Assembly (NCBI GenBank): GCA_963675785.1 | Contig: OY776562.1 | Span: 736,001-800,000 of the forward strand | Direction of reading: 5' to 3' | Source of the DNA: Anaerolineae bacterium | Lineage (GTDB): Bacteria; Chloroflexota; Anaerolineae; UBA1429 | Length of the DNA stretch: 64,000 nt | Part shown: positions 10,913 through 28,107 of the stretch, piece by piece | How positions within the stretch are numbered: position 1 is the first letter of the stretch | Layout: each line of letters starts with the position of its first letter | Notes under the pieces: model-generated | Database searches by the model: none | Told to the model about the DNA's origin: nothing | What the model saw: the letters and a program-made list of their open reading frames with translations, nothing else | Translations under genes and position numbers: made by a program

Positions 10913-11752
10913 TCATTCCTCGGCTTTCTCGCCGTTATTGACTGGCTCCTCATAGGCAATCTTTAGCGCTTGTTGCGATACCGTACTATACACTTTTGCA
11001 AGCCTTGCCATCAAGCTGCTGTCATTGATGAATCCCGGGCGCCCAAGTAGTTTGATGATCTGCATTCTAATCTCGGGCCCGTGTACGCGAATGTGCACAT
11101 CTGTGCCTTCAGGGCCCATCTCCCAATACGAGTCAATACATTCTTCGAGCGGAGGTTCGTAGGCCATGTCCGTCAAAGCGGCGCGTGCCTCTGATTTCTC
11201 CCCGTCGTTGGTCCCCCGCAATTCGCGCAGTGCCGCAATGATCTGTTCGCGGTTTCTGCCCCGCAGTTTGAACAAGAGATATGGGTCTTCGTCGAGCAAG
11301 TCACCAAAGGCGATACATGCTGCGGCTACATGCCGGCAGGGCACTGACCAGTTCGGCCCGCTGCATTCAGAGCCAATGTCACTCCGTTCAGAGGGTAACA
11401 ACGAGACGCCCTGCGCCTCAAAAATATCTTCAATATCGCGCGGTATCTCACCGTTCAGCAGGTGAGCAGAAAAACTGGCCTCTTCGGACATGGCTGCAAT
11501 GGCTTGTTCCCACACGTTGTCCCGAAAGGTCTGTACGCTGATGATGACGTGAAAGGTTTCTTCGTTCGGTTCGCTCACATCGGCTTCAAAGCGGCCGACG
11601 TCCACAACTAGATTCTTGACACGTCCGGCGCGAACATAGCGCATGCGCCCTGTGGATAGCAGGCTATTGCTAACCCATCCTTGCAGGGCTTGAAGCCACT
11701 TGCCAGACCACAATGTTTTATAATGCGTTCTGCCCATGTCCATGCTTGGCAT
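10913..11752 (-). CDS. SWIM zinc-finger family protein
   Basis: GR.Y.RAG.V motif, CSGP..PCRH SWIM-like motif and DPYLLFKLRG; coupled to the SNF2 gene. Confidence 0.85.
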   Translation of the reverse strand: MPSMDMGRTHYKTLWSGKWLQALQGWVSNSLLSTGRMRYVRAGRVKNLVVDVGRFEADVSEPNEETFHVIISVQTFRDNVWEQAIAAMSEEASFSAHLLNGEIPRDIEDIFEAQGVSLLPSERSDIGSECSGPNWSVPCRHVAAACIAFGDLLDEDPYLLFKLRGRNREQIIAALRELRGTNDGEKSEARAALTDMAYEPPLEECIDSYWEMGPEGTDVHIRVHGPEIRMQIIKLLGRPGFINDSSLMARLAKVYSTVSQQALKIAYEEPVNNGEKAEE

Positions 11753-14700
11753 TAGTCGTCTCCCAGCTCGTCGTCGATCGATTCTGAGCGCAGCAAGATA
11801 ACATCCTTGAGCTCATCCGTCGACAGTTCTGTGAGCCAGCCTTCGCCCGAGCCAACTACATTCTCGGCCAATTCGCGCTTGCTTTCGATGAGTGTATCAA
11901 TGCGTTCTTCAAGCGTGCCCGGGCAAATGAACTTGTGTACCTGTACATTTTGTGTTTGACCGATGCGGTAGGCGCGGTCAGTAGCTTGGTTCTCTACGGC
12001 CGGGTTCCACCAGCGATCATAATGGAATACGTGGTTGGCACGCATCAAGTTCAATCCCAAGCCGCCTGCTTTGAGCGAGAGCACAAAAATGGAAGGGGCG
12101 CGTTCATCTTCTTGGAATCGCTCCAGCATGTGGTCACGCTGGCGTTGCGGCGTGCCCCCGTGTAAAAAGAGCACCTCTTGGCCAAAATGTTCCTGCAAAT
12201 GGCGTTGCAAGACAAAGCCCATCTGGGCAAATTGGGTAAATACCAGCGCTCGATCGCCAACGGCCAGTACTTCTTCCAGCATCTCGGTCAGGCGGTTGAG
12301 CTTGCCTGACCGACTGGCCGATGCCGAACCGTCCGCCAGATAGAGCGCAGGATGATCGCAAATCTGCTTGAGCCGGGTGAGCATGGTAAGCACCATGCCC
12401 CGTCTCCTGATGCCCGACATATCCTTGCTGTCCTGATTGAGTTGGCTCAAGCCGTTTTGCACCACTGCCTGGTAAAGGCTAGCCTGCTCGCGCGTCAGGT
12501 TGCAATACACCTTGTACTCGAACTTTTCTGGCAAGTCTTGGATGACTTGCGGATCGGTTTTCACGCGGCGCAGCACAAAGGGGCGCACCAGTATCCGTAG
12601 TTTCTCGGATGCTGCCTCATCCTGGAAGCGCTCGATGGGCACAGCGAATTCGCGTCTAAAGCTCTCCAGCGAACCCAAATAACCGGGGAGCAAAAAGCTG
12701 ATGATGGACCACAGCTCTGAAAGGCGGTTCTCGATGGGTGTGCCAGTGAGGGCGATGCGATAGTCAGAATCCAACAGGCGTACGGCCCGTGCTTGTTTGG
12801 TATAAGGGTTCTTGATGTTCTGAGCTTCATCAAGGATAACGTTGGCCCAGCGCACTTGCCGCAAATCCTCGAGGTCACGACGCACCAAACCATACGTACT
12901 TACCACAATATCATTGCTCAGGCTCTGCTGAATAAAGTTCTCGCCTTCGGCGCGGCCGGTACCGTGATGTACCATCACGTTGAGATCGGGCGCAAAACGT
13001 TGAATTTCACGCTTCCAGTTGCCCACCAACGATGTGGGGCACACCAATAGCGTGGGGTTTTCTCCGCCGCCGTTCTTTCGCTCGTGCAGAACAAGGGCAA
13101 TAGCCTGGATGGTCTTGCCCAGACCCATGTCATCGGCTAGGCAGGCACCCAAATGCCAGTGCCGCAAAAAAGCCAACCACGAGAGGCCCCGTTTTTGGTA
13201 GGGACGCAACTCGCCCACAAAGTCTTCGGGTGTGTTGAGCTCGGGCAATTCCTGCCCGGAATCCAGTTGGCTCAAGAGACTGGCCAGCCAGCCATCTACT
13301 TCGATGGCGGATACTGTGAGCCCATCTAACTCGTCTTCAACACCCAGAGCCAACCCCAGAGCTTCGTGCAGCTCAATGCTTGACCGTTGCTGCTGTTTTT
13401 CCCAAAAGGCGATGGCTGCTTCCACTTGGTCCGGTTGCAGCAATACCCATCGCCCACGAACCTGGACCAGCGGCGTCTTGAGCTGAGCCAGGCGCTCAAA
13501 CTCTTCTTTCGTCAGCACCTCGTCGCCCAGAGCCAGTTCCCAGTCATATTCGACCAGGCTGTCCATGCTCAACATGCCCTTTTGTTGCGGCTCGATCATA
13601 TTGCCTTTGAGCTTGGCGCGTACGCTCAGGCGGGCGTCCGACCGATTCCACCAGGGCGGAACCATGACCGCAAACCCCTTTTCCTGCAAGAGCTGGGCGG
13701 TTTCGCGCAAAAAGCGAAAGGCCTCTTGGGCCGATAGTGTCGCCGATTCGGGTTTTTCTTTACGAAGGCTGCGCTGAATTGCCGTGCTGTATTGCGCGGC
13801 AATGCCCAGACCGGCCAGCAATCGTTCTTGTGCGTTCTCAAAGCTGTGATCGAGAAAACCGCCCGGGGCGATTTGTCCTTGCCACACGTCATGGACGGGT
13901 ACGAGCAGGCTGGGGTCTTTGACGGACTGGAACAGATATTCCAGTCGCCAATGTGCCTCAGAGCTCTCCAGGTCATAATCAGGAGCTTCCAGTCGGAAAC
14001 AGAGCTTAAAGTCGAAATGCTCGACTTGCTGTGATGGGTATGTCCAACTTCGCCAGGATTGCTGAAAGCGGTCGAGTTCGCCCCGTTTCGCTTCTGGCAC
14101 GGCCATGGTGTTATCGTCGGCGTAAAGCGCCTGCCACCAGGCACTGTCGACACGCGATGTTCGCACCCGCCGGGTTCGCTGCGCCAGGCCAAACTCTGCC
14201 GCATTGGGCGAGGCATAGGCCCAGTCTCGCACGGCCGAATCGACGAGGTTCTCGATAAAGCTAGACAGAACCGTATACGGGCGTGGCACCACTTCGCGCG
14301 CGTCATTCGCCGTTTCGCGAACTACGGCACGACATACGGGCGGCATGGCCTTCATCAGTAGGGTAAAGCGCTCGCGATCGTTCTCATCATTGATATAGGG
14401 CAACCAAATGGCGCCATAAGCATCGCCGTTTTTTTGCATACCGGGCAAAAAGCGTTCGCGAGCCAGCAACTCTAGGCCGAATTTGGCCACCAGACCCCAG
14501 TAACGCAAATCCTCGCCCAATTTATGGTCGTTCTGGCTGCCGTTCTGCATGGCAGGCAGCACCGTAAGCACGCGCAGCATATCGAGCACCGAAACGCCAA
14601 TACCTTCAACACGCCAGGGAGCCAGAATAGGCTCGGTATCTGGGTCAGGAGAGGCGTTATCCGCGGCTAACCAACCGGGTACAATAGGAGATTGCTCGCG

Positions 14701-14943
14701 CGATGGAAGCAGAGCAACGCGCGTGAGGCGCTGGGCACCCTGCCAGGCAATGCTCGGCACATAGTGCGACAGCAGATCCGCAATCTCGATAGTCGTCGCG
14801 CCGTACGGATGACGTAGAATGCGAGGTGTTTTGTTGTGTTGTGCGGGCAGCTCACGCCGAGCCCGCTCTGTCCAAACAAAGAAAAGGCCATCGGTTTGGC
14901 CGTCTCTGTCAGTTACCCAGGTTCCATGCAATACAGCTCGCAT
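11752..14943 (-). CDS. SNF2-family helicase/ATPase
   Basis: LRPYQ, LADDMGLGKT, DEAQ, LTGTPIEN, LSLKAGGLGLNL and WWNPAVENQATDRAYRIGQ motifs. Confidence 0.96.
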   Translation of the reverse strand: MRAVLHGTWVTDRDGQTDGLFFVWTERARRELPAQHNKTPRILRHPYGATTIEIADLLSHYVPSIAWQGAQRLTRVALLPSREQSPIVPGWLAADNASPDPDTEPILAPWRVEGIGVSVLDMLRVLTVLPAMQNGSQNDHKLGEDLRYWGLVAKFGLELLARERFLPGMQKNGDAYGAIWLPYINDENDRERFTLLMKAMPPVCRAVVRETANDAREVVPRPYTVLSSFIENLVDSAVRDWAYASPNAAEFGLAQRTRRVRTSRVDSAWWQALYADDNTMAVPEAKRGELDRFQQSWRSWTYPSQQVEHFDFKLCFRLEAPDYDLESSEAHWRLEYLFQSVKDPSLLVPVHDVWQGQIAPGGFLDHSFENAQERLLAGLGIAAQYSTAIQRSLRKEKPESATLSAQEAFRFLRETAQLLQEKGFAVMVPPWWNRSDARLSVRAKLKGNMIEPQQKGMLSMDSLVEYDWELALGDEVLTKEEFERLAQLKTPLVQVRGRWVLLQPDQVEAAIAFWEKQQQRSSIELHEALGLALGVEDELDGLTVSAIEVDGWLASLLSQLDSGQELPELNTPEDFVGELRPYQKRGLSWLAFLRHWHLGACLADDMGLGKTIQAIALVLHERKNGGGENPTLLVCPTSLVGNWKREIQRFAPDLNVMVHHGTGRAEGENFIQQSLSNDIVVSTYGLVRRDLEDLRQVRWANVILDEAQNIKNPYTKQARAVRLLDSDYRIALTGTPIENRLSELWSIISFLLPGYLGSLESFRREFAVPIERFQDEAASEKLRILVRPFVLRRVKTDPQVIQDLPEKFEYKVYCNLTREQASLYQAVVQNGLSQLNQDSKDMSGIRRRGMVLTMLTRLKQICDHPALYLADGSASASRSGKLNRLTEMLEEVLAVGDRALVFTQFAQMGFVLQRHLQEHFGQEVLFLHGGTPQRQRDHMLERFQEDERAPSIFVLSLKAGGLGLNLMRANHVFHYDRWWNPAVENQATDRAYRIGQTQNVQVHKFICPGTLEERIDTLIESKRELAENVVGSGEGWLTELSTDELKDVILLRSESIDDELGDD

Positions 14944-15067
14944 CGATAAGGTGTTACTCCATTTGACAAGAGGCTAACAACTGGCTCATTATTGTACAAC
15001 GCTTTGAGAACAGCGTCCAGAATCCAAGAGCCCCAATTTGTACTTGCACAATGAAAGAAGAAGATAT

Positions 15068-16063
15068 ATGACTACTGTTTCTAATGATGTTGTAAGTCAA
15101 GTTATTGCTTTCCACGGTCATTTCTGCCCCGGTTTAGCCACTGGCATTCGCGTTTCGGAAATAGCTCTCCGCATCTTGGGCCCTCGTGCTGCTGACGAAG
15201 AGATGATTGCCGTTGCCGAAACGCTCAACTGTGCGGTCGATGCCATCCAGTATCTTACAGGATGTAGCATTGGCAAGGGAAATCTGTTTCACCTTGATTA
15301 TGGCAAAAACGCGTTTACGCTGGCCCGACGCAGTGATGGAAAGGCCGTACGCATTGCCAGCAAACCTCGCAAGAGCCAGATGACCGACAAAGAGCAACAA
15401 CTCGTCTCCCGTGTCCGCAGCGGTGAGGCGACGACTGAAGAGCGAGCGGCTTACCAAGTATTATGGCGGCGCCGTGGCCAAGAAGTGCTGGATACCCCCG
15501 AGGACGAACTCTTTGTGATAACAGAATTGAACGATTACGAGTTTCCACCTGAGGCCGTCATCGTGCCCTCGGTCAAGTGCGACAAGTGTGGTGAACTCAC
15601 CATGTCGATCCGCATGACTCGCCTGGATGGTGCTAACCTCTGCCCGGCTTGCTTTGGCGTGGCTCCGCAGCTCACGCTGACGCAGGTGGGTACGGTGGAA
15701 AACGACCTTATCTATCCCGAGGTGGCGCCGCGCGTCAAGAGCGACCGTTCCGTCATTCATATTTTGCCGCAGTACATGCCAGCTTTGCAGGGCATTGAAG
15801 TGGGTGATTCTATCGAGCTGTACTTTATCTTTGATCGCGCTCCTGGCGAACTTTCACTGCTTCAACACCCTCGTGGTGATCAGAGCGTCCCACGCAAAGG
15901 CGTCTTTGCCTTACGCAGCCCGCATCGGCCGTCGCCCCTCGGCGTAACCGTGGTCGAAGTGTTGGAGCTGCTGCCGGACGGCATGGCTGTCAAAGGCTTG
16001 GATGCCTGGAGTGGCAGCCCCATAGTTGACATCAAGCCCAAACCGAAACATTATAGCGCCTGA
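15068..16063 (+). CDS. FmdE-family protein with zinc ribbon, fused to a TrmO/TsaA-like domain
   Basis: FHGHFCPG, CAVDAIQ, CDKCGE..CPAC, then GVFALRSPHRPSPLG and GLDA..GSPIVDIKP. Confidence 0.82.
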   Translation: MTTVSNDVVSQVIAFHGHFCPGLATGIRVSEIALRILGPRAADEEMIAVAETLNCAVDAIQYLTGCSIGKGNLFHLDYGKNAFTLARRSDGKAVRIASKPRKSQMTDKEQQLVSRVRSGEATTEERAAYQVLWRRRGQEVLDTPEDELFVITELNDYEFPPEAVIVPSVKCDKCGELTMSIRMTRLDGANLCPACFGVAPQLTLTQVGTVENDLIYPEVAPRVKSDRSVIHILPQYMPALQGIEVGDSIELYFIFDRAPGELSLLQHPRGDQSVPRKGVFALRSPHRPSPLGVTVVEVLELLPDGMAVKGLDAWSGSPIVDIKPKPKHYSA

Positions 16064-16099
16064 ATGGCCGCGTTGGCCTGGCATTCGATGGAGGAAACG

Positions 16100-16837
16100 A
16101 TGGGGAAAAAGATTCGCGTTACAGTGTGGAACGAGTACCGCCACGAGAAGAAGGATAAAGCCGTTTCGGACGTCTATCCTGAGGGCATTCACGGCCAGAT
16201 CGCCGCATTCCTTGGTGAGAACGCTGATTTGCAGATTCGCACCGCCACGCTCGATGAGCCCGATAATGGCCTGCCGCAGTCAGTCTTGGATGAGACCGAT
16301 GTATTGATTTGGTGGGGACATATGGCTCACGCCGACGTGCTGGATGAAACTGTAGATCGCGTACAAGCCCGCATTTTGCAAGGCATGGGCCTCATCGTGC
16401 TGCACTCGGGCCATTATTCCAAGATATTCAAGCGCATGATGGGCCAAACCTGCAATTTGAAATGGCGTGAAGTGGGCGAGCGCGAGCGCATTTGGTGTGT
16501 GCGCCCCGGTCATCCCATCGCCAAAGACGTGCCTGAAAAGTTTGTGATCCCTCACGCCGAGATGTATGGCGAGCCCTTTGATATTCCTCAACCCGACGAG
16601 CTTGTTTTCATCAGCTGGTTCCAGGGCGGCGAAGTGTTCCGCAGCGGCTGCTGCTACCATCGCGGCAAGGGCAAGATCTTTTATTTCTGCCCCGGCCACG
16701 AAACCTTCCCCATTTACTATCAAAAAGAAGTTCAGACCGTCATCAAGAACGCTGTTCATTGGGCAGCGCCGGTGGATGGTCCCACCATTACTTGGGATAA
16801 CGTCAAGGCTCAGGAAGAATTTGAGATTTCTGACTGA
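16100..16837 (+). CDS. thuA: Trehalose utilization protein, ThuA family
   Basis: VTVWNE, YPEGIH, WWGH.AH, LHSGH, EMYGE and PGHETFP motifs. Start at 16100 after GGAGG. Confidence 0.9.
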
Positions 16838-16854
16838 CCGGGCTTGGACAGACC

Positions 16855-16888
16855 AAAAAGGGTGTCCCTACAAGGGGCACCCTTTTTT
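16855..16888. terminator. Bidirectional intrinsic terminator between thuA and the RT gene
   Basis: AAAAAGGGTGTCCC, loop, GGGCACCCTTTTTT. Confidence 0.85.
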
Positions 16889-16983
16889 CTATGGGCGAGT
16901 GCTCAATGTGCTGACTGGAGCCGATTGACGATGGCGAGCAGGTGGCCGTTTGCACGCCCCTTTTTATGGGTTTGGCGTTGTAC

Positions 16984-19900
16984 TCAATCTGCCTTTTTAC
17001 GGTCTTGTTCAAACACGTATTTCCAGAGAGTGTGATTCTGTTTACGTTCTACGATGTCAGGCCTAAAATTAGGTGGGGTCGGCTTGAAAGTATCGTCATC
17101 GTGCTGCAATTCGTATTCTTTCCGCTGAAACTCGCGCAGTGCGTCAATATCGATCTCATCAACTAGTATGGCGCTGTTTTTACCGCCCTTCGTCTTAATG
17201 AGGTCACGTTTCTCTGTAGGCGATGGTGATGTGACTCTACTGTCGCCGTAATCTGACGAGTTCGCCTGAATACAGAAGCAATGAAGGTCACGGCACAGTG
17301 ATTCGATGATGCTACTAAAATAGTTGGTATCTCTATTCCACTCTACTGCTACCGTAAGGTCAGCATAAGATTGAAACAGCGCACGGTCTTGAATAGACGC
17401 TAACTCGTAGCAACAATATACAGAAAACCATACATCTCGCCAATAGAACAAGTGATAGGCGTTCCCCTCTATAGGAACAAATCGATATCCCTTAATTATC
17501 CGTTTTTCCTCTGGCGAATAATGTACCTTTTGATGATAGGTGATATAAGCATATTCATAGTTTTCTTGACGATAAGGCAAGATGATAGCTGTTAGATTAT
17601 ATACTTTTCGTTGTTTTTTATTTTCTCCTTCATGTGCTGGAGAAACTATGTGCTCAATACCTGTGATGAGCCCCATCTGATTTCTGGCACACAGCCTAGC
17701 AATGTCTGGGACCCATTCCCAGGGCAGATAGCTTTCGGGCAACACCAAAAGATCGACCTTCTCTTTGATTGCTGCACGGAGTAGATCTGAAAGCTGTTGG
17801 TATCGCTCAAAACTACGGTTTGCTTTCCCTGTAAGAGCCCCATAAAAATCCTTATCAGTGAGTCTGGCGTTTCCAATGGAGACTTTGAGTTTCTTGCAAG
17901 AATCATCTCCAATGGATATGGCATAACATCCTCTGTTTATAGTATCTTTTTTGAACTTTTCTGGACGAGTTCTCTCTGAAGTAGAGCTATTTTTGTTATC
18001 ACTTTTGTTCTCATCATCGCTCGCTATGCCACAGTGATCTTCATCAGCAGAGCAATCCCTAAATATTCCCACTTTTATTTTATCAAGAGCAAATTTCTTC
18101 CCATCTTCTTCCGATGTTGAGTTTCTTAAATTCGGATAATTCCACTCTCTATATAGAGTTTCTATTTTTTCTCGTTGTTTTATTGGATCTGGCAGATCAA
18201 CAGCACTGCTTATAGCCTGGCAGGTAAGGGCGAAAGAAAGCTCTTGTGGGGTCACCATATATGGATAATAGTGATATTCTTGATCTTCCCATTTCGCGTC
18301 CAAGTATCCTACCACATCCTCAAGTTTATAAAGACATACGTCGAAAGATAATTCATCAGAGAAAATAACCCCCAAAAGGCAATCTATTGGAAGAGGTATT
18401 ACATACTTGTTAATCATCCGTGTGGTACAGTAGTTCTTTCTAGTTTTCAAAAGAGAATCATAGGAGAAATCGATACAGAATTCATCCAAAGCTCCTGCTC
18501 CAACTCTAGGAACAGTCAGAGTTTTCATCGCTGCTTCCTCAATATTTTTGAGGGTTTTTTTGATGTTTGGTCCCCAACGTAACGCGGCTGTGCGACATAT
18601 GGCCGCACGAAGCGTTCTCAGGAGCGCTTCGTCTGACTCTTTGCTCGTTTTGACCTTTTCGTCCGGTACATGAAATTCGACGATGGTCTCCAAAATGTTG
18701 GTTATTAGCTTTTGGTAATTAGTCAAACGATCATTGACAATCATGATTTCCAACAGACGTTCCCACAAAGTGTGATTCTCTATAAGGGCATGCCGATCCA
18801 GAATGGTCAGAAGATCTCTATCAAAGACTGTCTCTTTTTTATCTCTAATCATGCCGCTGGCTTGGCGGTACTTGCCGAGAAACTTGGAGAGTGAGAATTT
18901 ATCCAATTCAACTCCGGCAACGCCTCGCAACTTATGGATACTGTCCTCTCTCTGCAAGTGGAATATTTCACTGTAATCATTTTTGTTGAGGAGAGTGTCC
19001 ATTTCCGGCAAATAGTTGAATCCACTTGCATTTTGAGCGATCTGTGTGTGGAAACAATCTAATAAAGCTCTACTTGCGCCTTTGCGAAAGTAGAATACCC
19101 TGACTTTGCTATCTTGTATTTGAATATCAGGATTTCCTTTTGTACTAAAGATAGCTGGGTTAATCTTATATGCTGAGGGAAAGTTTCGAGCTTGGGAACT
19201 CTCATCTGTGACTTGCGTTTTGTCTTGTTCCTTTGATGGTGTTTTCTTATCCTCTGATGGAGTCTCTCTGTTGCTTGTGATTCCTATAAACAGTTCTTGT
19301 TCATTCGGGCAGTCTGTTCGACTCGCAGGGCATGAACAAAAGTAATAGTTTATCACAAATTCTCTCGTTAGCCGCTCTGTTTGTTCTGTAATTTTCTCGC
19401 CATTCTTATATTTTTTCGATACTTCGTTTGCTTTTTTCTGTAACGGGCTATTTTTCTCTACTTTATCGACGATGATAATGTCATCCACATAGCGCCCATA
19501 GTAGACGGGGTTCCAGCGTTTGATGATAGCGTCATCAAACGGCGTAAGAGCCCAATTAGATAGGATTTTGGAGGGTAGGAAACCGATGGGCAGGATTGTA
19601 CGCTTTCCAATCTGCAATTCCATATCAGTACTTATTTCCCTTATTTTGTCCGAATAGGCACAAAGGACAGCATAGACAAACGCATGGATACGTTTGTAAA
19701 CGCGCTCCTGCCACGGTTCGAGAGTCTTGACATATTTAAACAGTTTTTCGAACTCTTCCTCCTGAATGTCGACGCTGTAATAGAAACTCTTGAAATCCAG
19801 AGTCAGAATCAGAGCATCTTGCTTATCATCAAGCCTACTCTTGGCGTATTGCAAAGCTTTGTCACGCCAGCTCTCATACTGAATAAAATAGGGCTCGAAT

Positions 19901-20421
19901 AGATTGGGCGAGTAGGTAATATCTTCAGAATCGGGATTGATCAAGGTTTTTCTTAGTCGATTACCGTAAGAATGCTCATACATAAGTGCACCATCTGGGT
20001 TATTGGGATTATCTAGAGCCAAACCAACAGACAGCACCCACAAAACTCCTAGGATATGTCCAGTGATGGGTAGATCAATAAAGTATTGAGCTTTTTCGAG
20101 CTGGACAGGCTCACCATCTGTGTTAAAAATGATTCCATTTTTGTCCCTATCTTCTAATTTTTTTGGTAATACCAGCACATTAACTTTATTTTTTATCTGT
20201 TCTTCATATTCTTTCCATATACTTTCTTCTGCCAAAAGTGCGGTACATAGAGTGGAAAAACTGTCGTCGACTTGATCTGTTTCAAACTCAACTATCTTGT
20301 CTCGCAATGGGGGCATATATTTATCAAAGTAAACACTAGCCTTTAGTTTTTTGTAGGCGATGCAAATACGCTTTAATAGTTCATTAAATCCTTGACTTTC
20401 ATTGTTTTGTTCTTTTTGCAT
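16984..20421 (-). CDS. Reverse transcriptase-nitrilase fusion (DRT1-like UG/Abi defence-associated RT)
   Basis: RT motifs YGNRL, LDFKSFYYSVD, LPIGFLPS and YGRYVDD (YVDD at 19480-19491). C-terminal carbon-nitrogen hydrolase triad VLPES, QKVHYSPEE and CCYEL. Markedly AT-richer than its flanks. Confidence 0.92.
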   Translation of the reverse strand: MQKEQNNESQGFNELLKRICIAYKKLKASVYFDKYMPPLRDKIVEFETDQVDDSFSTLCTALLAEESIWKEYEEQIKNKVNVLVLPKKLEDRDKNGIIFNTDGEPVQLEKAQYFIDLPITGHILGVLWVLSVGLALDNPNNPDGALMYEHSYGNRLRKTLINPDSEDITYSPNLFEPYFIQYESWRDKALQYAKSRLDDKQDALILTLDFKSFYYSVDIQEEEFEKLFKYVKTLEPWQERVYKRIHAFVYAVLCAYSDKIREISTDMELQIGKRTILPIGFLPSKILSNWALTPFDDAIIKRWNPVYYGRYVDDIIIVDKVEKNSPLQKKANEVSKKYKNGEKITEQTERLTREFVINYYFCSCPASRTDCPNEQELFIGITSNRETPSEDKKTPSKEQDKTQVTDESSQARNFPSAYKINPAIFSTKGNPDIQIQDSKVRVFYFRKGASRALLDCFHTQIAQNASGFNYLPEMDTLLNKNDYSEIFHLQREDSIHKLRGVAGVELDKFSLSKFLGKYRQASGMIRDKKETVFDRDLLTILDRHALIENHTLWERLLEIMIVNDRLTNYQKLITNILETIVEFHVPDEKVKTSKESDEALLRTLRAAICRTAALRWGPNIKKTLKNIEEAAMKTLTVPRVGAGALDEFCIDFSYDSLLKTRKNYCTTRMINKYVIPLPIDCLLGVIFSDELSFDVCLYKLEDVVGYLDAKWEDQEYHYYPYMVTPQELSFALTCQAISSAVDLPDPIKQREKIETLYREWNYPNLRNSTSEEDGKKFALDKIKVGIFRDCSADEDHCGIASDDENKSDNKNSSTSERTRPEKFKKDTINRGCYAISIGDDSCKKLKVSIGNARLTDKDFYGALTGKANRSFERYQQLSDLLRAAIKEKVDLLVLPESYLPWEWVPDIARLCARNQMGLITGIEHIVSPAHEGENKKQRKVYNLTAIILPYRQENYEYAYITYHQKVHYSPEEKRIIKGYRFVPIEGNAYHLFYWRDVWFSVYCCYELASIQDRALFQSYADLTVAVEWNRDTNYFSSIIESLCRDLHCFCIQANSSDYGDSRVTSPSPTEKRDLIKTKGGKNSAILVDEIDIDALREFQRKEYELQHDDDTFKPTPPNFRPDIVERKQNHTLWKYVFEQDRKKAD

Positions 20422-20683
20422 AATCTTATGCCTTTGTAAAGTGAGTTCTGGCGATCAAATCTCTACCGAGTCTTGCAAAAAAAGCTCTTGTGTAACTATT
20501 ATCATGGACTTTTCACTAAACAGTGTGCTCTCTTGGTATTATTCAGGGAAAACATCAACTTACAGAGATAGAGAAGATTCTCAACTATTGAAACTGCTAA
20601 TAGATATCTTATGAAGCTATAATACACTTTTTTGCGTTAAAAGTCTGCTGTATCACTATAAATCACCAACGCGTAAGCCAACA

Positions 20684-20712
20684 TTGCACTTTTGGCTCTT
20701 GTTGGCTATTCT
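20684..20712 (+). promoter_or_regulatory. Promoter for manA overlapped by an inverted repeat
   Basis: TTGCAC, 17-bp spacer, TATTCT; AGCCAACA/TGTTGGCT inverted repeat around the -35 box. Confidence 0.55.
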
Positions 20713-20738
20713 GGTGAGGTACAAGCAAAGGGGAATCT

Positions 20739-21767
20739 ATGACGACTGATATCTATCCACTGACTTTTGAGCCTGTTTTTCGCGACTATATATGGGGTGG
20801 CCGTAATCTGGAGACGCTCTTCGGGCGCCACTTGCCAGAGGGGCGCATCGCCGAAAGCTGGGAGATCTCGGGGCACCCGAGTTCGCCAACTGTGGTGAGC
20901 AACGGCCCTTTGGCCGGCAAGACGCTACCGGAACTCGTCACCGAGATGGGCGTCGATTTGGTGGGCACCGCTTCAGCCGAGATGCTGGCTCGGGGCAAAT
21001 TCCCACTGTTGGTCAAGCTGCTGGATGCCAACCGAGACCTTTCGGTGCAGGTGCACCCCAACGATGCCTATGCTGGCGAATATGAGAACGGCGAACTGGG
21101 CAAGACAGAGATGTGGTACATCCTCTGGGCTGCGCCTAATGCCGAACTCATCTACGGTGTGGCGGAAGGGGTCACCAGGGAATCCTTCAAAAAGGCCATC
21201 GAGAGCAACACGTTGGAGACTCAATTGAACCGCATCCCCATCAAGGCGGGTGATACGGTTTTCGTGCCTTCGGGGACGGTGCACGCGTTGCTAGCGGGTA
21301 CGGTGGCGGCTGAGATTCAGCAAAATTCGGATACCACCTACCGTGTATATGACTGGGGTCGAGTAGGTGACGACGGCAAGCCACGTCCGCTGCACATCGA
21401 CAAGGCCTTGGATGTCATCGATTTCGACCGAGCGGCGCCGCCTTTGGTTGAACCCGTTCAGGTGTGGTCGGGCGAAGGTTTGGAGATGGACTCGCTGGTG
21501 GCCTGCCCACAGTTCAGGATCGACAGGGTTACAATGGAGCAGGGTCTGGCCATCGAGGGCTATTGCTCGGGCGTCACTTTTGAGATATGGGGCTGCATCA
21601 AGGGGCAAGTCAGGATAGAGCATGATGACGAGCTTTGGCCGGCGGTCGATATCTCTGCCGTAGGTTGGGTGTTGTTACCTGCTACTCTGGGGGATTTCAC
21701 TGTTCGGGCCAGTGAGGACAGCGTTTTATTACGGGCACGAATTCCCAAGCCCGAAAAAGGCAAGTAA
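20739..21767 (+). CDS. manA: Mannose-6-phosphate isomerase, class I
   Basis: IWGG, ESWE, FPLLVK, LSVQVHP, KTEMW, HAL and EIQQNSDTTYRVYD motifs. Confidence 0.93.
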   Translation: MTTDIYPLTFEPVFRDYIWGGRNLETLFGRHLPEGRIAESWEISGHPSSPTVVSNGPLAGKTLPELVTEMGVDLVGTASAEMLARGKFPLLVKLLDANRDLSVQVHPNDAYAGEYENGELGKTEMWYILWAAPNAELIYGVAEGVTRESFKKAIESNTLETQLNRIPIKAGDTVFVPSGTVHALLAGTVAAEIQQNSDTTYRVYDWGRVGDDGKPRPLHIDKALDVIDFDRAAPPLVEPVQVWSGEGLEMDSLVACPQFRIDRVTMEQGLAIEGYCSGVTFEIWGCIKGQVRIEHDDELWPAVDISAVGWVLLPATLGDFTVRASEDSVLLRARIPKPEKGK

Positions 21768-21796
21768 AAGAGGGGCGGTCTTGACCGCCCCTCTTT
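21766..21796. terminator. Bidirectional terminator
   Basis: AAAAGAGGGGCGGTC, short loop, GACCGCCCCTCTTT between convergent genes. Confidence 0.85.
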
Positions 21797-21863
21797 CTCT
21801 AGCAGCTTTTGGTAGACAGATGTTCCGCAGCCAGTCGCAAACTGCCGCAGTCGCAAACTGCCA

Positions 21864-22655
21864 CTATTCGGCGATTACGTGGTTGGTGAGTACACCGATG
21901 CCTTCTATCTCAATGTCTACGACATCGCCTGCATGTAGGAATACCGGCGGTTTGCGCGCAAAGCCTACGCCAGAGGGTGTCCCCGTCATGATGACGGTGC
22001 CCGGAAGCAGCGTCAGGTTTTCTGAGAGGTAGGAAACCAATTTGGCGCAGGAAAAGATCAAGTCATTGGTGTTGGAATCCTGCATGGTTTTGCCATTGAC
22101 TCGCGAAGTGACGCGTGCATTATCGGGGTCGAGATCGGTTTCGATCCAGGGGCCTAGTGGGCAAAAATTATCAAACGATTTTCCGCGTGCCCATTGGCGG
22201 TCAATTTCCAGTTGGCAATCGCGCGCGCTGACGTCGTTGCCGCAGGTATAACCCAGCACGTAATCCAAAGCATCTTCTTCAGAAACATGTTTGGCTTTTT
22301 GGCCGATGATGATAGCCAATTCGCATTCATAATCCACATGATCCGGCGCAATGCGCGGTAGTACGATGGGATCGCTGGGGCCGCAGACCGTAGTGGTGGC
22401 CTTGATGAACAGCAAGGGCCGTTCGGGCAGCGTTTCGCCGCCTTCCATGGCGTGGGCCCGATAGTTAAGCCCGATGGCCAGCACATTGGGAGGATCGACG
22501 GGCGCCAACAGGCGAGAATCTATAGGCAGGGTGGTGCTGCTGTCCACCGACCAATCTCCAAAGACACATCCTTTGATGGGGTGGTACCCCTTGTCGCCGA
22601 TGACGACATGTACCGGTTTGCCGTCTGGGCCGCTGATACGGGCGATTCTGGTCAT
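21864..22655 (-). CDS. Fumarylacetoacetate hydrolase family protein
   Basis: IGLNY..H, DYECELA, GNDVSARD, GKSFD..PLGP and TGTP.GVG motifs. Confidence 0.93.
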   Translation of the reverse strand: MTRIARISGPDGKPVHVVIGDKGYHPIKGCVFGDWSVDSSTTLPIDSRLLAPVDPPNVLAIGLNYRAHAMEGGETLPERPLLFIKATTTVCGPSDPIVLPRIAPDHVDYECELAIIIGQKAKHVSEEDALDYVLGYTCGNDVSARDCQLEIDRQWARGKSFDNFCPLGPWIETDLDPDNARVTSRVNGKTMQDSNTNDLIFSCAKLVSYLSENLTLLPGTVIMTGTPSGVGFARKPPVFLHAGDVVDIEIEGIGVLTNHVIAE

Positions 22656-22699
22656 CGCTGGTCCTTTCGTTCTTACAATGGATGATGAGCTATCGTTTG

Positions 22700-23650
22700 T
22701 CAGTTCAAAGATTGGCTGACGAGCGCCGCGCCGCCGAGCACCCCGGCATCGTTTTCAAGTACGCTTTCCACAACCTCTATCTCACGGGGCATCTCGATAG
22801 AGGATTCTCGCTGGATAATATTGCTCACTACATTGATGCTTTCGGGCCAGGCTTTGACTACGCCGCCACCCAATACCAAGAGTTGGGGACTAAGCAGGTT
22901 GACGAGATTGGCTAAAGCGACCCCCATATATTCAAAAGCCTCTATCATCGCAGCGCGCGCGCCTTGATGACCGGAATTGGCCTGATCGATCACTAGGGCA
23001 GCGCCAGCATAGCGTGTGCCTAGCTGAAAGAGCTCTCGTGGATCAAAGAGAGTTTGAGCAGTGCGTTCCAATGCCTTGGCCGAGCAATACATTTCCACAC
23101 AGCCATGTCCACCGCAGGTGCACAGGCGTCCACCCGGCACTACTTTGGTATGGCCGAACTCACCGGCCATGCCGTTACTGCTGTGGTAAACCTGGCCGTT
23201 CAGAATGAGGCCCGAACCGACACCAGAGCCCACAAATACCGCTGCCATATCATCGACTTTGCGACCTACACCAGCAGTATGTTCACCAAGAGCGATCAGG
23301 TTGGTGTTGTTGTCCAAAAAGGCGGGAATGGAGAGGTCATTCTGCAAGTCGTCAACGATAGATGCACCATCTAACACGCTCAGGTTGGGGCAGACGATGA
23401 CATTGCGTCGTTCCACGTCTACGACGCCGGGCACGCCCACCCCAATGCCACAGATATCAGCGAGGGGGATATGCTTGTCATCGAGAAAGCGCCGTGTTGC
23501 ACTGGCCAGTGCGGCTCCCCCCGGCCTTTCGCCTGTGAAGATGACACTGCTCATGGGCCTGTCTCGCGTTACAATGCGTGGCATATCACGTTCTACTATG
23601 GCAAAGTGCGTCCGCGTTGCGCCAATGTCAACTGCCATTCTATAGCTCAT
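22700..23650 (-). CDS. ROK-family sugar kinase
   Basis: VDIGAT, GVGVPG, GSGVGSG, AGEFGH and CTCGGHGCVE motifs; no N-terminal HTH. Confidence 0.9.
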   Translation of the reverse strand: MSYRMAVDIGATRTHFAIVERDMPRIVTRDRPMSSVIFTGERPGGAALASATRRFLDDKHIPLADICGIGVGVPGVVDVERRNVIVCPNLSVLDGASIVDDLQNDLSIPAFLDNNTNLIALGEHTAGVGRKVDDMAAVFVGSGVGSGLILNGQVYHSSNGMAGEFGHTKVVPGGRLCTCGGHGCVEMYCSAKALERTAQTLFDPRELFQLGTRYAGAALVIDQANSGHQGARAAMIEAFEYMGVALANLVNLLSPQLLVLGGGVVKAWPESINVVSNIIQRESSIEMPREIEVVESVLENDAGVLGGAALVSQSLN

Positions 23651-23687
23651 ACTTGCACTCCTCGCGCCACTGCGTCAAACGGCAATT

Positions 23688-25241
23688 TCAGCCGCCCGGA
23701 TGTGATGGATATCCCGTTATATCCCTGATCTCTTCATAGAGTGCCCGCAATCTGCGGTACATTTGCAAATAGACGCGGGTGTAAAGCTCTTCATATATTT
23801 CTGCATTATCTTTGTTGGGTTCAAAAACACGCCCCAACCTGCACATCGATGTGACCGCTGTCTCATGGTCGGGATACCAGCCGAGGCCAACGGCAGCATT
23901 GATGGCGGCACCGAGCGAAGATGTTTCATAGATATGCGGTCTGGCTGTGGGTAGGTTGAACACGTCGGCAGTGATTTGCAGGGCCTGATCGGATTGTGAA
24001 CCACCGCCAGATACGCGCAGCTCATGCACGGGTTTATGGGAAGCTCGTTCGGAGCGTTCTTTGCCTTCGCGCAAGGCGTAGCATAGCCCTTCAATAATAG
24101 CACGATAAACGTGCGCGCGCGTATGAACATCGCCAAATCCGATCATCGCCCCCTTGGCCTCTGGGCCGGGCAGCTTGACCCCTGGCGCCCAGTAGGGCTG
24201 AACTAGCAAGCCCATCGAACCAGGCGGCACTTCGGCAGCCAGCTCATCGAACAGTGATTCTGGTTCAATGCCCAAACCGGCAGCCAGGTTTTCTTCGCGC
24301 AGGCCAAACTCCTGTCGGAACCAACTTACCATCCAATAGCCGCGGTAGATCTGCGTCTCCAGGCTGTAATGATCGGGCACAGCCGCCGGATAGGGCGGTA
24401 TGAGTGGAATCGTCTCGACATAACGCTTGTGGGTGGTGTTAAAGGTGGCTGTCGTGCCGTAACTCAGGCAACCAATATGTGGGTCCAGCGCACCAGCGCC
24501 AATGACTTCGCAGGCTTTATCTCCGCCGGCGGCGAACATGGGTAAGCCCTCGGGGATGCCGGTAGCCAGGCTGGCCTCATGGGTGATATGGCCCAGTATG
24601 CCGCTGGGGGGCACAAGGTCGGGCAATATCGATTCAGGCATGGGAACAGCCTTCCACTTCCAGCTGCCTTTACTGGCCCAGACTAGTTTTTTATAGTCAA
24701 ATGGCACATAACCCACTTGCGAAGCCACTGAATCGACTGTTTCACCAGTGAGAAGGCGCGTCAGGTATCCCGACAAAAACAGATATTTGTCCGTCTTGTC
24801 CCATATCTCTGGCTGATGCTTTTGGATCCAGTTGCTTTCGGCCTCTGCCTGAAAGTAGGCGACGGTCTCTCTCATGCCGGATAGCGCAAAGAGCAGCCCC
24901 CACAAACCGCCCACGGGGGGCAAGCCTTCGGCTCGCCGCTGATCCAACCAGACAATAGCCGGGCGCAGTGGCTTGCCTTCGCGGTCGATGTTGACTACTG
25001 TGGCACGCTGTGTGGTGAGCGAAACACCTTTGATTGCCTCTTTGGGGATAGAGGTTGTATCCCAAAGCTTGTTGCAAACGCAACATAGCTGCCGCCAAAA
25101 ATACTCGGGATCCTGCTCTGCCCAACCAGGATTTACAGAATAGTAAGGATCGAGGATGACCCGCGCCATTTCGACGAGGTTGCCCTGAGCATCAATGATT
25201 GTTGCCCGAACGCTCTGGGTGCCGTTATCGATGGCCAGCAC
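23688..25241 (-). CDS. FGGY-family carbohydrate kinase
   Basis: [21 protein letters not shown] and SGGGSQS motifs; start codon uncertain. Confidence 0.92.
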
Positions 25242-25269
25242 ATAGGGCCCGCCCCGTGAGGAGGATGGA

Positions 25270-26232
25270 CTAGTCGTAATTGCCCTCCTCGCGCCAGATT
25301 TTGAGCATCATTTCATAGCGTTCCAACGGCATTCCGGTGAATACGCAGTTACTGGTAGAGAAAACATAGCCACCGCCGGGCATGCCGTTGCGCAGCGCAT
25401 ACCGCACCGATTCGATGACTTCTTCATCGGTGCCGGTGGTGAGCAGCCCGCAGTTGACGTTGCCAATCAGGGCTACCTTATCGCCAACTAGTCGCTTGAT
25501 CTCGGCAATATCCACGCCGCCCTGCGGGTCCAGGCTATGCAGTGCGTGGGGGCCGGCATCTACTAACTCATTTAGGATGGGCATGATGTTGCCATCGGTG
25601 TGTTTGATGGTGTAAAAGCCTAATTCGCGTTCCCCTTGTACCACCCGTTTAAGAAACGGGGCGACGGCCTTGCGGAACATGCGCGGGCTGAGAAACGGAC
25701 CTGTGTTAAAGCAGTAATCGGAACAGAGGGCAAAGCCATCCAATCCGCCGTGGGCGGCCAGCTTGGCGGCTTTTTCCAGTTGGGCATCCACGCGACGGTC
25801 GGCTTCGGCCAGGGCTTCATCGGTCTTGTTATAGAGCCAGGCGCACCATTCGGTCATCTTGTCACCGTTGGGGATGGAATACGTGGCGTCGCCGTGCATC
25901 ATCAAAAAGTAGGTGTCACCGCTCTTTTCCCGAATCGCGTCGATGAGGCGGTAGGTCTCTTCCAGCGTGTTGGGGTTGGGGTGGATAAAGATGGCATCGT
26001 GTTCGAATCGTTGTGCCGTGCGGATATATAGATCGGCCATATCTTGCCGATGCAGTTCGCGTTCTGTCTCCGTCATCTGGTCCCACTGATGGTAGCTGCG
26101 ATGGCTAGGATGCACTTGCCCAAAGGCCTCCATCGTGAGGAAAAAGACGAGTTCGAAATGGGGCACGCGACCGTGGATAGGCTTTCTATCGAGCGCTGCG
26201 GCAAAGCGTTCGCGTGGGGTCGGATCTATCAA
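25270..26232 (-). CDS. Uroporphyrinogen decarboxylase/methyltransferase-like family protein
   Basis: TPRERF N-terminus, SDY....GPFLSP, HTDGN, LIGNV and [10 protein letters not shown] motifs. Confidence 0.85.
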
Positions 26233-26372
26233 GGCGGCCTCCGTGTTAGATGAAAACGACCAGGCTGATACCGGTAGCTAAGATTAGCGATGAGAGCGTC
26301 TTGTGTCAACCCAGGGTGCTTGCCAGCGGCGCAGATAAGACTACTATTTAGGGATGGAACTGGAGGGGGATT

Positions 26373-27281
26373 ATGGAAAATGAGCGCGCCATCGAGACAA
26401 AAGATCTCACTGTATCTTATGGCAAACACAGGGGAATCACCGATGTCGATCTTGCCGTAGAGTCTGGCGAGGTTTACGGCTTTCTTGGGCCTAATGGTGC
26501 TGGTAAAACAACAACCATGCGTACGTTGCTCGACTTGATTAGGCCAGTATCGGGCACGGCGACGATCTTTGGCTTGGATTGCCAACGCCAGGGAGCTCAT
26601 GCTCGCGAATATGTGGGCTATATGCCGGGCGATCTCAACATGTATTCTCAGCTCTCTGGCAAAGACTATTTGGCCATGATCACTTATTTGCGTGGCAATC
26701 ATATCGACAAACGCTATACCGAGATGCTCTGTCAACGGTTGGATTTGAACGTGAATCGGCGCATCGGTGAATACTCGACCGGCAATCGACGCAAGCTGGG
26801 TCTGGTAGCCGCCTTTATGCCCCAACCGCAGTTGCTCATGCTGGATGAGCCGACCTCGGGCCTCGACCCCTTGGTGCAAGAGACGGTGCTCGATATGGTG
26901 CGTGAGGCTGTAGACGGAGGTAGCACTGTTTTCTTCTCCACCCATGTGCTCTCAGAGGCTGAGACGATCTGCGACCGCGTCGCTCTCATTCGCGAAGGTC
27001 GTGTGATCACGGTGGAAAGCGTCAAGAGCCTTACTGCCAAGCGCTTAACAACGTTATCACTAGAGCTGGCTCATGCTGTTTCGGCGGAGGCTATTGAACG
27101 CAAAGGTGTTGAGGTGTTGAGCATCGAGGGCAACCTCATTCGTGTTCAGATCACCAGTGGTTTGCCCGAGTTTATGCGCCAGATGTCGTTGTTGGGCATC
27201 GAGTCCATCACCACTGAGCCGGTCACTCTCGAATCTGTCTTTCTCTCATACTACCGAGGTGAGGAGGCCCCCCGTGTATAG
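26373..27281 (+). CDS. ABC transporter ATP-binding protein (ABC-2 exporter)
   Basis: GPNGAGKTT, YSTGN signature, LDEPTSGLD and STH motifs. Confidence 0.93.
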   Translation: MENERAIETKDLTVSYGKHRGITDVDLAVESGEVYGFLGPNGAGKTTTMRTLLDLIRPVSGTATIFGLDCQRQGAHAREYVGYMPGDLNMYSQLSGKDYLAMITYLRGNHIDKRYTEMLCQRLDLNVNRRIGEYSTGNRRKLGLVAAFMPQPQLLMLDEPTSGLDPLVQETVLDMVREAVDGGSTVFFSTHVLSEAETICDRVALIREGRVITVESVKSLTAKRLTTLSLELAHAVSAEAIERKGVEVLSIEGNLIRVQITSGLPEFMRQMSLLGIESITTEPVTLESVFLSYYRGEEAPRV

Positions 27282-28107
27282 CATCCTACGCAAAGAACTC
27301 CGTTTTCGCCTGAGCGGCATGTTCTGGTGGTTTATTGGCGGATTGAGCTTGGCACTGATGGAGGTAGCGATCTTTCCCTCTATGGCCTCGCAATTGAGCG
27401 GCATGGATTTTCCCGCCTTTTTCGAGTTGTTTGGCCCTGTTGCTCAAATGTATACGATCGAAGGATTCTTATCCGTCGAGATGTTCGGATTCATGGTGCC
27501 GCTGGTGGTATGCATTTACGGCGTGGTGTTGGGCGCCAACCTTTTGGGTGGCGAAGAAGACGAGGGCACGCTTGAAATCCTGGCAGCTTTGCCCGTTCGT
27601 CGTTGGAAGATCGTGGTAGGCAAGGCTATCGCCTTGGCTGTTCTGGTTCTCATCCCTTTAGTGGGCATGTTGTTGGGCACGATTTTGGGTCTGGAATATA
27701 TTCAAGACCAATTGACAAGTACTATCGAGATGCGCCTGTTGCTGCTCAATACGTTGTTTTCCTGGCCGCTCGCGCTCGCATTTGCTTATCTGGGGTTGTG
27801 GTTGGGGGCCTATTTGCCAACGCGCTCGATCGCATCTTCGTTTGGCACTTCGCTGGCGGTCATCGCTTATTTTATGGATACGCTCGGTGGAATGGTGCCA
27901 GCCTTACAGGATTACCGCCTGTATTCCCCCATGTATTACTACAGAAGCCTCGATGTGCTTCATGGAGAGTTGGATTGGGGCGCGCCAGCGCTGTTGCTGG
28001 GGCTTGCAGCAATCCTTTTGCTGTTTGCTCTGGCCAGCTTTGCCCGGCGCAACATCACCGTCCATGCCTGGCCCTGGCAACGCAATCGTCAGCTTGATGC
28101 GGAATAA
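27274..28107 (+). CDS. ABC-2 type permease
   Basis: About 6 TM segments; GEEDEGTLE.L...PV.R motif; GTG start at 27274 after GAGGAGG. Confidence 0.88.
   Translation: MYSILRKELRFRLSGMFWWFIGGLSLALMEVAIFPSMASQLSGMDFPAFFELFGPVAQMYTIEGFLSVEMFGFMVPLVVCIYGVVLGANLLGGEEDEGTLEILAALPVRRWKIVVGKAIALAVLVLIPLVGMLLGTILGLEYIQDQLTSTIEMRLLLLNTLFSWPLALAFAYLGLWLGAYLPTRSIASSFGTSLAVIAYFMDTLGGMVPALQDYRLYSPMYYYRSLDVLHGELDWGAPALLLGLAAILLLFALASFARRNITVHAWPWQRNRQLDAE

Follow-up and report, generated by a model that had tools for sequence, protein, structure and literature searches.

DRT11 is a UG5-large fusion of a reverse transcriptase (RT) with a nitrilase, which is carried without a membrane partner on pSymA of Sinorhizobium meliloti RMO17 (PMC13436386). 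It is reported to protect by itself against podovirus-like phages, at low multiplicity of infection only, and to lose this protection when the Asp-Asp pair of the RT is replaced by Ala-Ala or the nitrilase cysteine by alanine (C876A); no noncoding RNA (ncRNA) was seen in that study. Purified DRT1, DRT5S and DRT5L are reported to make covalently attached DNA without a template; the adducts of DRT1 assemble dormant filaments that gate the nitrilase, and T4 phages escaping DRT1 map to the single-stranded DNA (ssDNA) helicase Dda (Neville 2026, PMC13275509). Here we describe a gene for a protein of this kind (P0001), which is located on the minus strand at positions 16984..20421 of a 64,000-nucleotide stretch (the window) of an Anaerolineae bacterium (assembly GCA_963675785.1, contig OY776562.1, positions 736,001 to 800,000). 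P0001 is likely to be an intact and probably functional stand-alone UG5-large RT-nitrilase, brought into a strain-variable locus of an Anaerolineae-type member of the Chloroflexota on a 3.7-kb cassette of low guanine-plus-cytosine (GC) content; the donor was most likely Bacillota-like, and the mode of action of P0001 is read from its relatives.

The open reading frame (ORF) begins with ATG and encodes 1145 aa without an internal stop. The best PADLOC model was RT_UG5-nitrilase (PDLC03780), with an E-value of 1.8e-230 and 766 bits, aa 7-1128 being matched to positions 13-898 of the 907 in the profile. A second UG5-nitrilase model (292 bits), UG5_small (216 bits), RTasNitrilase (107 bits) and Drt1a (74 bits) scored lower, and the match to Drt1a was limited to the RT core (aa 151-336). 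The feature set of UG5-large is found in P0001, i.e., a YxDD motif with the motif A aspartate, a fused C-terminal nitrilase with Glu-Lys-Cys, and a size of about 1000 aa with the RT-hydrolase extension. Pfam alone gave weak matches (RVT_1, 36 bits at a cut-off of 29.6; CN_hydrolase, 17.7 bits, under its cut-off of 23.2), the NCBIfam matches were all sub-threshold (Drt3a, retron St85 and Drt2, with no Drt1 model among them), and a phmmer comparison of P0001 with the PDB sequences yielded no match. The RT-nitrilase family comprised 765 proteins at E ≤ 0.001 among 7,994 candidates scored; the best non-self match was 63% identical, and lengths were mostly 1020-1100 aa among the matches listed. On profile scores, P0001 is thus assigned to the UG5-large RT-nitrilases (UG/Abi class 3; DRT11/DRT5L type) and not to DRT1/UG1; it is one more member of an established family and does not amount to a new type of system.

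An earlier sequence-only reading of the locus had noted an unbroken ORF of 1145 aa that includes YVDD and the Glu-Lys-Cys triad of a nitrilase, which the translation and the invariance of these residues in 30 of 30 aligned sequences bear out. The PADLOC search that it had proposed was run and, with RT_UG5-nitrilase as the best model, agrees with its placement of the gene among the UG/Abi class 3 RT-nitrilases. Its label 'DRT1-like' is imprecise, given the full-length match to UG5-nitrilase versus a partial one to Drt1a, and the grouping with retron or group II intron RTs that it had named as an outcome speaking against its view was not found, since retron profiles stayed below their cut-offs and no intron RNA was detected. 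The same reading had taken the gene for a single-gene unit, and no partner ORF is indeed present in the cassette. It had also observed that a membrane partner is missing, and no ORF for a downstream transmembrane partner (clusters 85 / 1858) exists between the RT stop codon and thuA. Its further suggestion that P0001 might for this reason represent a distinct subtype does not hold: such a partner is reported beside 31 of 299 UG5-large genes (Mestre 2022) and accompanies about 18% of drt1 genes (Neville 2026, PMC13275509), and DRT11 defends without one, so that the partner-less state is common and does not mark a subtype.

P0001 consists of three parts, all encoded on the minus strand. The N-terminal region with the RT (palm/fingers) domain (aa 1-340; 19402..20421) was recognized by Pfam RVT_1 (aa 186-339), PADLOC RT_UG5_small (aa 17-325) and Foldseek, and holds the motif A aspartate D209 (19795-19797) and the catalytic YVDD (aa 311-314; 19480..19491), the latter aligned with the YVDD of the DRT1 chain 9yfd. 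A mostly helical connector (aa 341-835; 17917..19401), which according to alignment gaps and the predicted local distance difference test (pLDDT) holds lineage-specific loops, leads to the nitrilase (C-N hydrolase) domain (aa 836-1122; 17056..17916), which was matched by PADLOC models PDLC02995 (aa 835-1122) and RTasNitrilase (aa 874-1119) and, in Foldseek, by D-carbamoylase 6led. Its characteristic residues are E896 (17734-17736), K965 (17527-17529), C1004 (17410-17412) and E1006 (17404-17406). Within the family alignment of 30 rows (P0001 plus 29 homologues), D209, D313/D314, E896, K965, C1004 and E1006 are invariant throughout, and P0001 retains every family-invariant residue. A profile of this alignment, when compared with the solved DRT1 chain 9yfd, placed C1004 on the catalytic C1116 and D313/D314 on D324/D325. 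Near the C-terminus, the motif FKPTPP (aa 1112-1117; 17071..17088), of which F1112, K1113, P1116 and P1117 occur in all 30 rows, might act as a lid of the nitrilase.

The AlphaFold2 model of P0001, calculated with the 30-sequence alignment (mean pLDDT 72, pTM 0.79), is made up of an RT region, a connector that is mostly helical (aa 450-780) and an alpha/beta C-terminal domain. Foldseek matched the first part of this model to AbiA, DRT9, G2L4, DRT6 and AbiK, and its last part to D-carbamoylase. Three loops of P0001 (aa 333-346, 380-416 and 793-832) correspond to gaps in the relatives and coincide with model regions of pLDDT < 50 (aa 343-348, 383-413 and 792-828); these lineage-specific loops account for the extra length of P0001 over the usual ~1050 aa. 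Y418 was considered as a priming residue and ruled out because three relatives have Phe at this place in the alignment.

The gene differs markedly from its surroundings in base composition. GC fractions were 0.358-0.444 in the seven 500-nt intervals of 17000-20499, compared with 0.518-0.582 in 11000-16999 and 21000-27999; the RT-nitrilase gene itself has 40.9% GC versus 53.6% for the genome (z = -4.4), a value as low being reached by only 0.16% of 6,429 genomic intervals of equal length. At third codon positions (GC3) its value is 0.40, versus 0.58-0.68 for four neighbouring genes. The low-GC segment has the form of a strain-variable cassette of 3,724 bp and 40.5% GC (16951..20674), the borders of which are the positions where contigs of other strains leave the window sequence (16950 and 20675). 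It contains the RT-nitrilase gene, a 33-nt 3' tail, which passes directly into native DNA and the shared terminator, and 253 nt of upstream non-coding DNA (20422..20674, minus strand), presumably the promoter and 5' untranslated region, with neither a partner gene nor a detectable structured RNA. The native DNA left of the cassette has 57.5% GC, and the whole intergenic stretch on the other side (20422-20738, 317 nt) has 36.9%.

Of the words sampled from 16400-21100, at least 64% are present in each of eight public runs from three studies. Contigs from four runs of four studies (X4, X8, X9 and X10) were aligned to the window; these data record presence only, not cell frequencies. In contigs from two studies the flanks are 97-99% identical to the window, from which the contigs then depart at 16950 or 20675. 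Sequencing depth in run X4 was 63-96 on both flanks versus 7-13 over the RT-nitrilase gene. A 711-nt X4 contig (depth 7.6) spans the left border with zero differences from the window, and the deeper X4 contigs show a few variants at 16853-16914 and are unlike the window past 16950. A 678-nt contig from X8, a different study, equals 16546-16950 with 10 differences and continues into about 270 nt of other sequence, which begins with the letters found in X4. At the right border, two contigs of X4 diverge from the window before 20675, and X9 and X10 yielded only short flank pieces of lower identity. No contig with a direct 16950-20675 junction, i.e., an empty site, was seen in the four runs; as no contig joins both borders, other strains carry different DNA there rather than an empty site. 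The departure of contigs at both positions thus marks a strain-variable, replaceable cassette. The cassette sequence of the window itself is present in contigs of runs from three studies, and the X4 and X8 copies show no differences. Repeats beyond 6-mers were not found at the cassette borders, nor was a second copy or fragment of the RT-nitrilase gene found in the genome. (At low depth, X4 also holds a second RT-nitrilase allele, 85-87% identical over 18892-19630 and 17584-17659. Divergence prevents an alignment of its stretch at 19171-19383, which codes for the variable loop behind YVDD; this suggests that the loop is fast-evolving.)

None of 40 relatives examined was found to have a homologue of P0001; 24 of these genomes belong to the same family and 16 to the same class, and 30 have a completeness of at least 90% and a contamination of at most 5%. 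In 300 other genomes, sampled evenly across the phylum, the UG5 profile had no match at E ≤ 1e-50. In a collection of species-representative genomes, the relatives at 44-55% identity were metagenome-assembled genomes or isolates of Bacillota, save one unclassified 'bacterium'. In a quick maximum-likelihood tree of 46 rows (LG+G4, with SH-aLRT support only), P0001 falls into a clade of seven rows (support 95) together with six metagenomic proteins without visible genomic context; this clade is nested in one of 30 rows (support 99), in which every named member belongs to the Bacillota. A metagenome scan with the alignment gave 50 loci; one with a single protein gave 41 pattern matches, none of them a relative. 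Searches of GenBank phages (tblastn) returned no match. Among the predicted viral contigs of IMG/VR there are seven full-length, distant RT-nitrilases of the UG5 type (L095-L101, 29-35% identity), none of which is close to the P0001 clade. Horizontal acquisition of the RT-nitrilase gene is well supported, because its GC and GC3 are low, it is absent from the 40 relatives and the 300 phylum genomes, its nearest relatives with a named organism are Bacillota and its cassette is strain-variable; the donors were most likely Bacillota-like bacteria.

The cassette is flanked by two native genes on the plus strand, thuA (16064..16837; Pfam ThuA, 115.6 bits) and manA (20739..21767; Pfam PMI_typeI_cat), the latter encoding a type I phosphomannose isomerase and being divergent from the RT gene. 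Between thuA and the cassette lies a GC-rich hairpin with runs of A and T on either side (16855..16887; inverted repeat I2 with 15-nt arms, 93% complementary, and a terminator-like site at 16872-16884), which is a predicted native bidirectional terminator common to thuA (+) and the RT gene (-), outside the cassette. Relatives examined for synteny belong to the same family, none to the same genus, which limits what synteny can tell here. Orthologues of thuA (69-75% identical) occur in 13 and those of manA in 14 of 15 same-family genomes. Both genes were on one contig in three of these genomes and never adjacent: in G008 a single aldo/keto reductase gene lies in the 1.3 kb that separate them, in G014 the intervening 8.3 kb contain sugar-metabolism genes, and in G002 the distance is 17 kb; in ten other same-family genomes they are on separate contigs.

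No integrase or transposase family was detected in the neighbouring ORFs scanned at 6974-30457, 15 in number and each of 200 aa or more (14 of them scanned with Pfam, the fifteenth, 29687-30457, with PADLOC only), and PADLOC found no complete defence system among them. Its sole match there was the helicase core of an SNF2/DUF3670 protein (11752-14943), without the partner genes of Zorya or Dpd. This 1063-aa SNF2-type helicase with DUF3670 belongs to a minus-strand pair at 10913-14943, in which its start codon overlaps the stop of a 279-aa ORF without a family match; its core matches the ZorD and DpdE models, and no partner genes of those systems are nearby. No tRNA genes were found in the window. 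Elsewhere the genome (G000) contains a further low-GC block of 12 kb (C1 1811501-1823438, GC 0.42) and about ten others of 4-6 kb, which are possibly further imported islands.

What the sequence-only reading had said about the setting of the gene was largely sustained, namely that it is richer in AT than its flanks, stands alone between thuA and manA without mobile-element or other defence genes, and was acquired horizontally; the syntenic conservation among relatives that it had named as speaking against its view was not found. Its assignment of the host to the Chloroflexota fits the manA homologues, of which 119 were listed: the eight whose names give an organism all read Chloroflexi, Chloroflexota, Anaerolineae or Anaerolineales. 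Its picture of an insertion between two otherwise adjacent genes must be divided: adjacency of thuA and manA was not met with in any same-family relative examined, and the strain contigs do reveal a replaceable cassette at this place.

The non-coding parts of the locus offer no sign of an RNA or protein partner. No Rfam match was obtained on either strand of 16700-20900 at E-values up to 1, the 317-nt spacer folds no better than shuffled sequences (z -1.1; 14 of 100 shuffles fold as well), and a blastn comparison of both spacers with 83 related loci yielded 14-nt chance matches only. A search for a partner ORF in the upstream spacer found only ORFs of chance size. One of the ORFs on the strand of the RT gene, upstream of it (20502-20627, minus), would encode a hydrophobic peptide of 41 aa from a GTG start. 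No ribosome-binding site is recognizable by eye in front of this ORF, and related loci contain no equivalent; it has probably arisen by chance in AT-rich DNA.

By analogy with DRT11, DRT5L and DRT1, the RT domain of P0001 would synthesize short, untemplated DNA primed on the protein itself. The covalent DNA adduct would then lead to oligomerisation, which would both enable and restrain the C-terminal nitrilase, until a cue from a stage of phage replication releases it. The chemistry of the nitrilase would finally stop the infected cell, as in abortive infection. Neither an RNA template nor a partner protein would be required.

Many Bacillota relatives of P0001 are encoded next to a helicase gene. 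Among L007-L090, a RecQ-like ORF on the same strand adjoins the RT gene in 19 loci (> 500 bits with a profile of six RecQ proteins). Its end is at most 100 nt from the RT start in 14 of these, with gaps from +94 to -68 nt (starts of longest ORFs); in the other five (L014, L018, L048, L072 and L073) the RT ORF is broken on its 5' side and the distance is not comparable. The longest RT ORFs of these five measure 470-795 aa though their tblastn matches are full-length; the broken frames could be pseudogenes or assembly errors. Three further loci have C-terminal fragments of RecQ at contig ends. Examples of RecQ genes directly upstream of the RT are L007:2059-4002, L010:2116-3999, L013:2149-4002, L014:2167-4014, L016:2091-3974 and L017:2122-4020. 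The full RecQ set (DEAD, Helicase_C, RecQ_Zn_bind, RQC and HRDC) was present in six of 16 upstream proteins scanned with Pfam and was partial in a seventh (L012); the remainder are type I restriction R or S subunits, GmrSD or other helicases, or had no match. (An interpretation of the upstream genes as membrane proteins, which a hydrophobicity heuristic had suggested, was rejected, as Pfam identified helicases and restriction subunits.)

RecQ-linked lineages stand on both sides of P0001's clade in the tree, and none of the 14 rows with upstream data outside the 30-row clade is RecQ-linked. Two relatives have additional C-terminal domains: P0010, the RT of L041 (3977-7399), ends in an HRDC domain (aa 1072-1136), and P0005 in an RNase_T/DEDD exonuclease (aa 1119-1283). 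The linked RecQ was the sole RecQ copy in three of five genomes checked, and its GC content is 1-15 points above that of its RT gene. The trees of RecQ and RT agree broadly, and over 28 non-independent pairs the pairwise identities correlate with r = 0.63; in one genome an unlinked RecQ groups with its taxonomic kin and the linked RecQ does not. The literature searched does not mention a linkage of UG5 with RecQ, the table of associated gene clusters of Mestre 2022 being outside that search; neither RecQ nor HRDC is mentioned in the DRT11 paper (PMC13436386) or in the main text of Mestre 2022.

The abutting or overlapping RecQ genes, together with the HRDC domain of one relative and the DEDD exonuclease fused to another, would be explained if the RT-nitrilase of the Bacillota clade normally worked with a DNA helicase or nuclease that processes or senses the RT-made DNA adduct. 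The gene in the window would then be a natural partner-less derivative that had passed into a phylum, and into a genome, lacking RecQ. We regard this as a tentative idea that is rather unlikely to be correct. By analogy, such a partner would be the host-encoded counterpart of the phage helicase Dda that is needed for the activation of DRT1, and, if the idea were true, the gene in the window would become a test case for the helicase as a regulator as opposed to a mere neighbour.

Several observations weigh against the view of P0001 as a functional stand-alone defence protein. DRT11, the sole validated stand-alone member, shares only 25-29% identity with it, so that its function is extrapolated across a deep split. 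Other class 3 DRTs are reported not to conserve Ser402, the priming residue of DRT1 (PMC13275509), and the priming residue of P0001 therefore cannot be read across; the surroundings of S402 in 9yfd are unaligned with the family profile, and the corresponding stretch of P0001 is a variable loop of low confidence. The second half of the nitrilase (aa 1003-1082) has pLDDT < 50, and its catalytic geometry is thus not readable from the model. None of the public runs listed as containing the window sequence is an RNA run, and a promoter scan restricted to the sigma-70 consensus found six sites versus 7.8 expected in the region, none of them on the minus strand of the spacer. Within the 30-row clade, nine of 15 dereplicated lineages with known context are RecQ-linked and six are not, a count of lineages with visible context only, to which the six closest homologues (P0002-P0007) do not belong. 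The window itself has no RecQ gene upstream of the RT, where the 317-nt spacer is followed by the divergent manA. RecQ_Zn_bind had no match in its single-contig genome (94.8% complete), versus a match in eight of 14 control genomes. (The best tblastn match of the RecQ proteins in that genome is a helicase of 23-25% identity at C1:114417-115541.)

The RecQ data could also mean that P0001 is the orphaned half of a module of RecQ helicase and RT-nitrilase, the helicase having been left behind at transfer, and that the gene is inactive or mis-regulated, or works differently, in a RecQ-less host. The 19 adjoining loci with their short gaps in 14 cases, the three RecQ fragments, the six complete RecQ domain sets, the RecQ-linked lineages flanking the P0001 clade and the two domain fusions all accord with such a module, as does the lack of RecQ_Zn_bind in the genome and of any RecQ remnant in the spacer (tblastn with six RecQ proteins gave chance matches only, E > 1). 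We nevertheless consider it improbable, as six of the 15 lineages of the same clade do without RecQ, DRT11 and DRT1 work alone, and P0001 has lost no invariant residue; moreover, a linked RecQ that is the sole copy in three of five genomes, with GC 1-15 points higher, may be the housekeeping recQ beside an insertion site. A smaller chance still, and a slight one, is given to a decaying or silent passenger, i.e., a recent import neither expressed nor used by the host. The foreign codon composition (GC3), the lack of a promoter-like site upstream on the strand of the gene and the restriction of the cassette to a minority of the X4 population are what one would expect of it, but the 3.4-kb frame is open with all family-invariant residues kept, the cassette sequence recurs in runs of three studies with X4 and X8 copies free of differences, and the promoter scan models the sigma-70 consensus only.

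That the gene is instead the RT of a mobile retroelement (group II intron, retron or diversity-generating retroelement), or a metabolic enzyme, a nitrilase in the service of the sugar genes next to it, is very hard to credit. The Pfam match to RVT_1 and the position among carbohydrate genes are compatible with one or the other, but the retron St85 RT profile reached 41.6 bits at a cut-off of 235, the retron-type RT models of PADLOC at most 30 bits, and Rfam revealed no intron, retron or other RNA family on either strand of the locus. As to a metabolic enzyme, it is the RT-associated nitrilase models that match, the general CN_hydrolase remaining below its cut-off, and those relatives that have retained the sugar genes all lack this gene. 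An imported, stand-alone UG5-large RT-nitrilase remains the explanation that we favour.

The locus would extend UG5-large RT-nitrilase defence to the Chloroflexota, no other copy being present in the 300-genome sample of the phylum. It gives an unusually clean view of the transfer of a single defence gene between phyla on a 3.7-kb cassette that has neither an integrase nor a transposase nor repeats at its borders, into a landing site that is occupied by other DNA in near-identical strains and the borders of which are placed to within a few bases. The more useful lead is the large Bacillota clade of UG5-large proteins that is tightly tied to RecQ genes and some members of which carry an additional HRDC or exonuclease domain. 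As to the trigger of class 3 DRTs, the single determinant known so far, that of DRT1, is a phage ssDNA helicase; the RecQ-linked loci and the partner-less copy in the window would together provide natural material on the action of helicases at protein-linked DNA.

P0001 was compared with CHARACTERISED systems (DRT11, DRT5L, DRT1 and the UG5-large system of Escherichia coli E101). The E. coli E101 protein, from the P2/P4 hotspot, is like P0001 an RT-nitrilase of the UG5 radiation; its system is reported to depend on a downstream membrane protein, whereas the window locus has no such gene. DRT5L presumably belongs to the same UG5-large family as P0001, an equation read from its name and not from a comparison of sequences, and it provides the biochemical precedent for template-free, protein-primed synthesis. 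DRT1 (UG1, Drt1a; Klebsiella pneumoniae, 9yfd) shares with P0001 the class 3 RT-nitrilase fusion, and the Asp-Asp pair and the nitrilase cysteine align; it is often stand-alone and causes abortive infection. The family profile of P0001 matched 9yfd only at residues 150-345 and 1115-1221 (54.7 bits), and the C-terminal tail differs.

The most similar of these systems is DRT11, the best PADLOC model of which is also PDLC03780 (1016 bits). DRT11 comes from a defence-rich megaplasmid region of an alphaproteobacterium, whereas the gene in the window lies among chromosomal sugar-metabolism genes of a member of the Chloroflexota; DRT11 has 1005 aa and an assayed function, and P0001 has 1145 aa with three extra loops. 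Both are single genes with neither a membrane partner nor evidence of an ncRNA. The two proteins are co-linear across the RT, middle and nitrilase parts, the RT parts being 25% and the nitrilase parts 29% identical. They have the same domain order; YVDD and the nitrilase Cys-x-Glu are aligned, C1004 falling on DRT11 C876, FKPVP of DRT11 occupies the place aligned to FKPTPP of P0001, and K833 of DRT11 pairs with K965 by the motif Y-x-Q-K rather than by the BLAST alignment.

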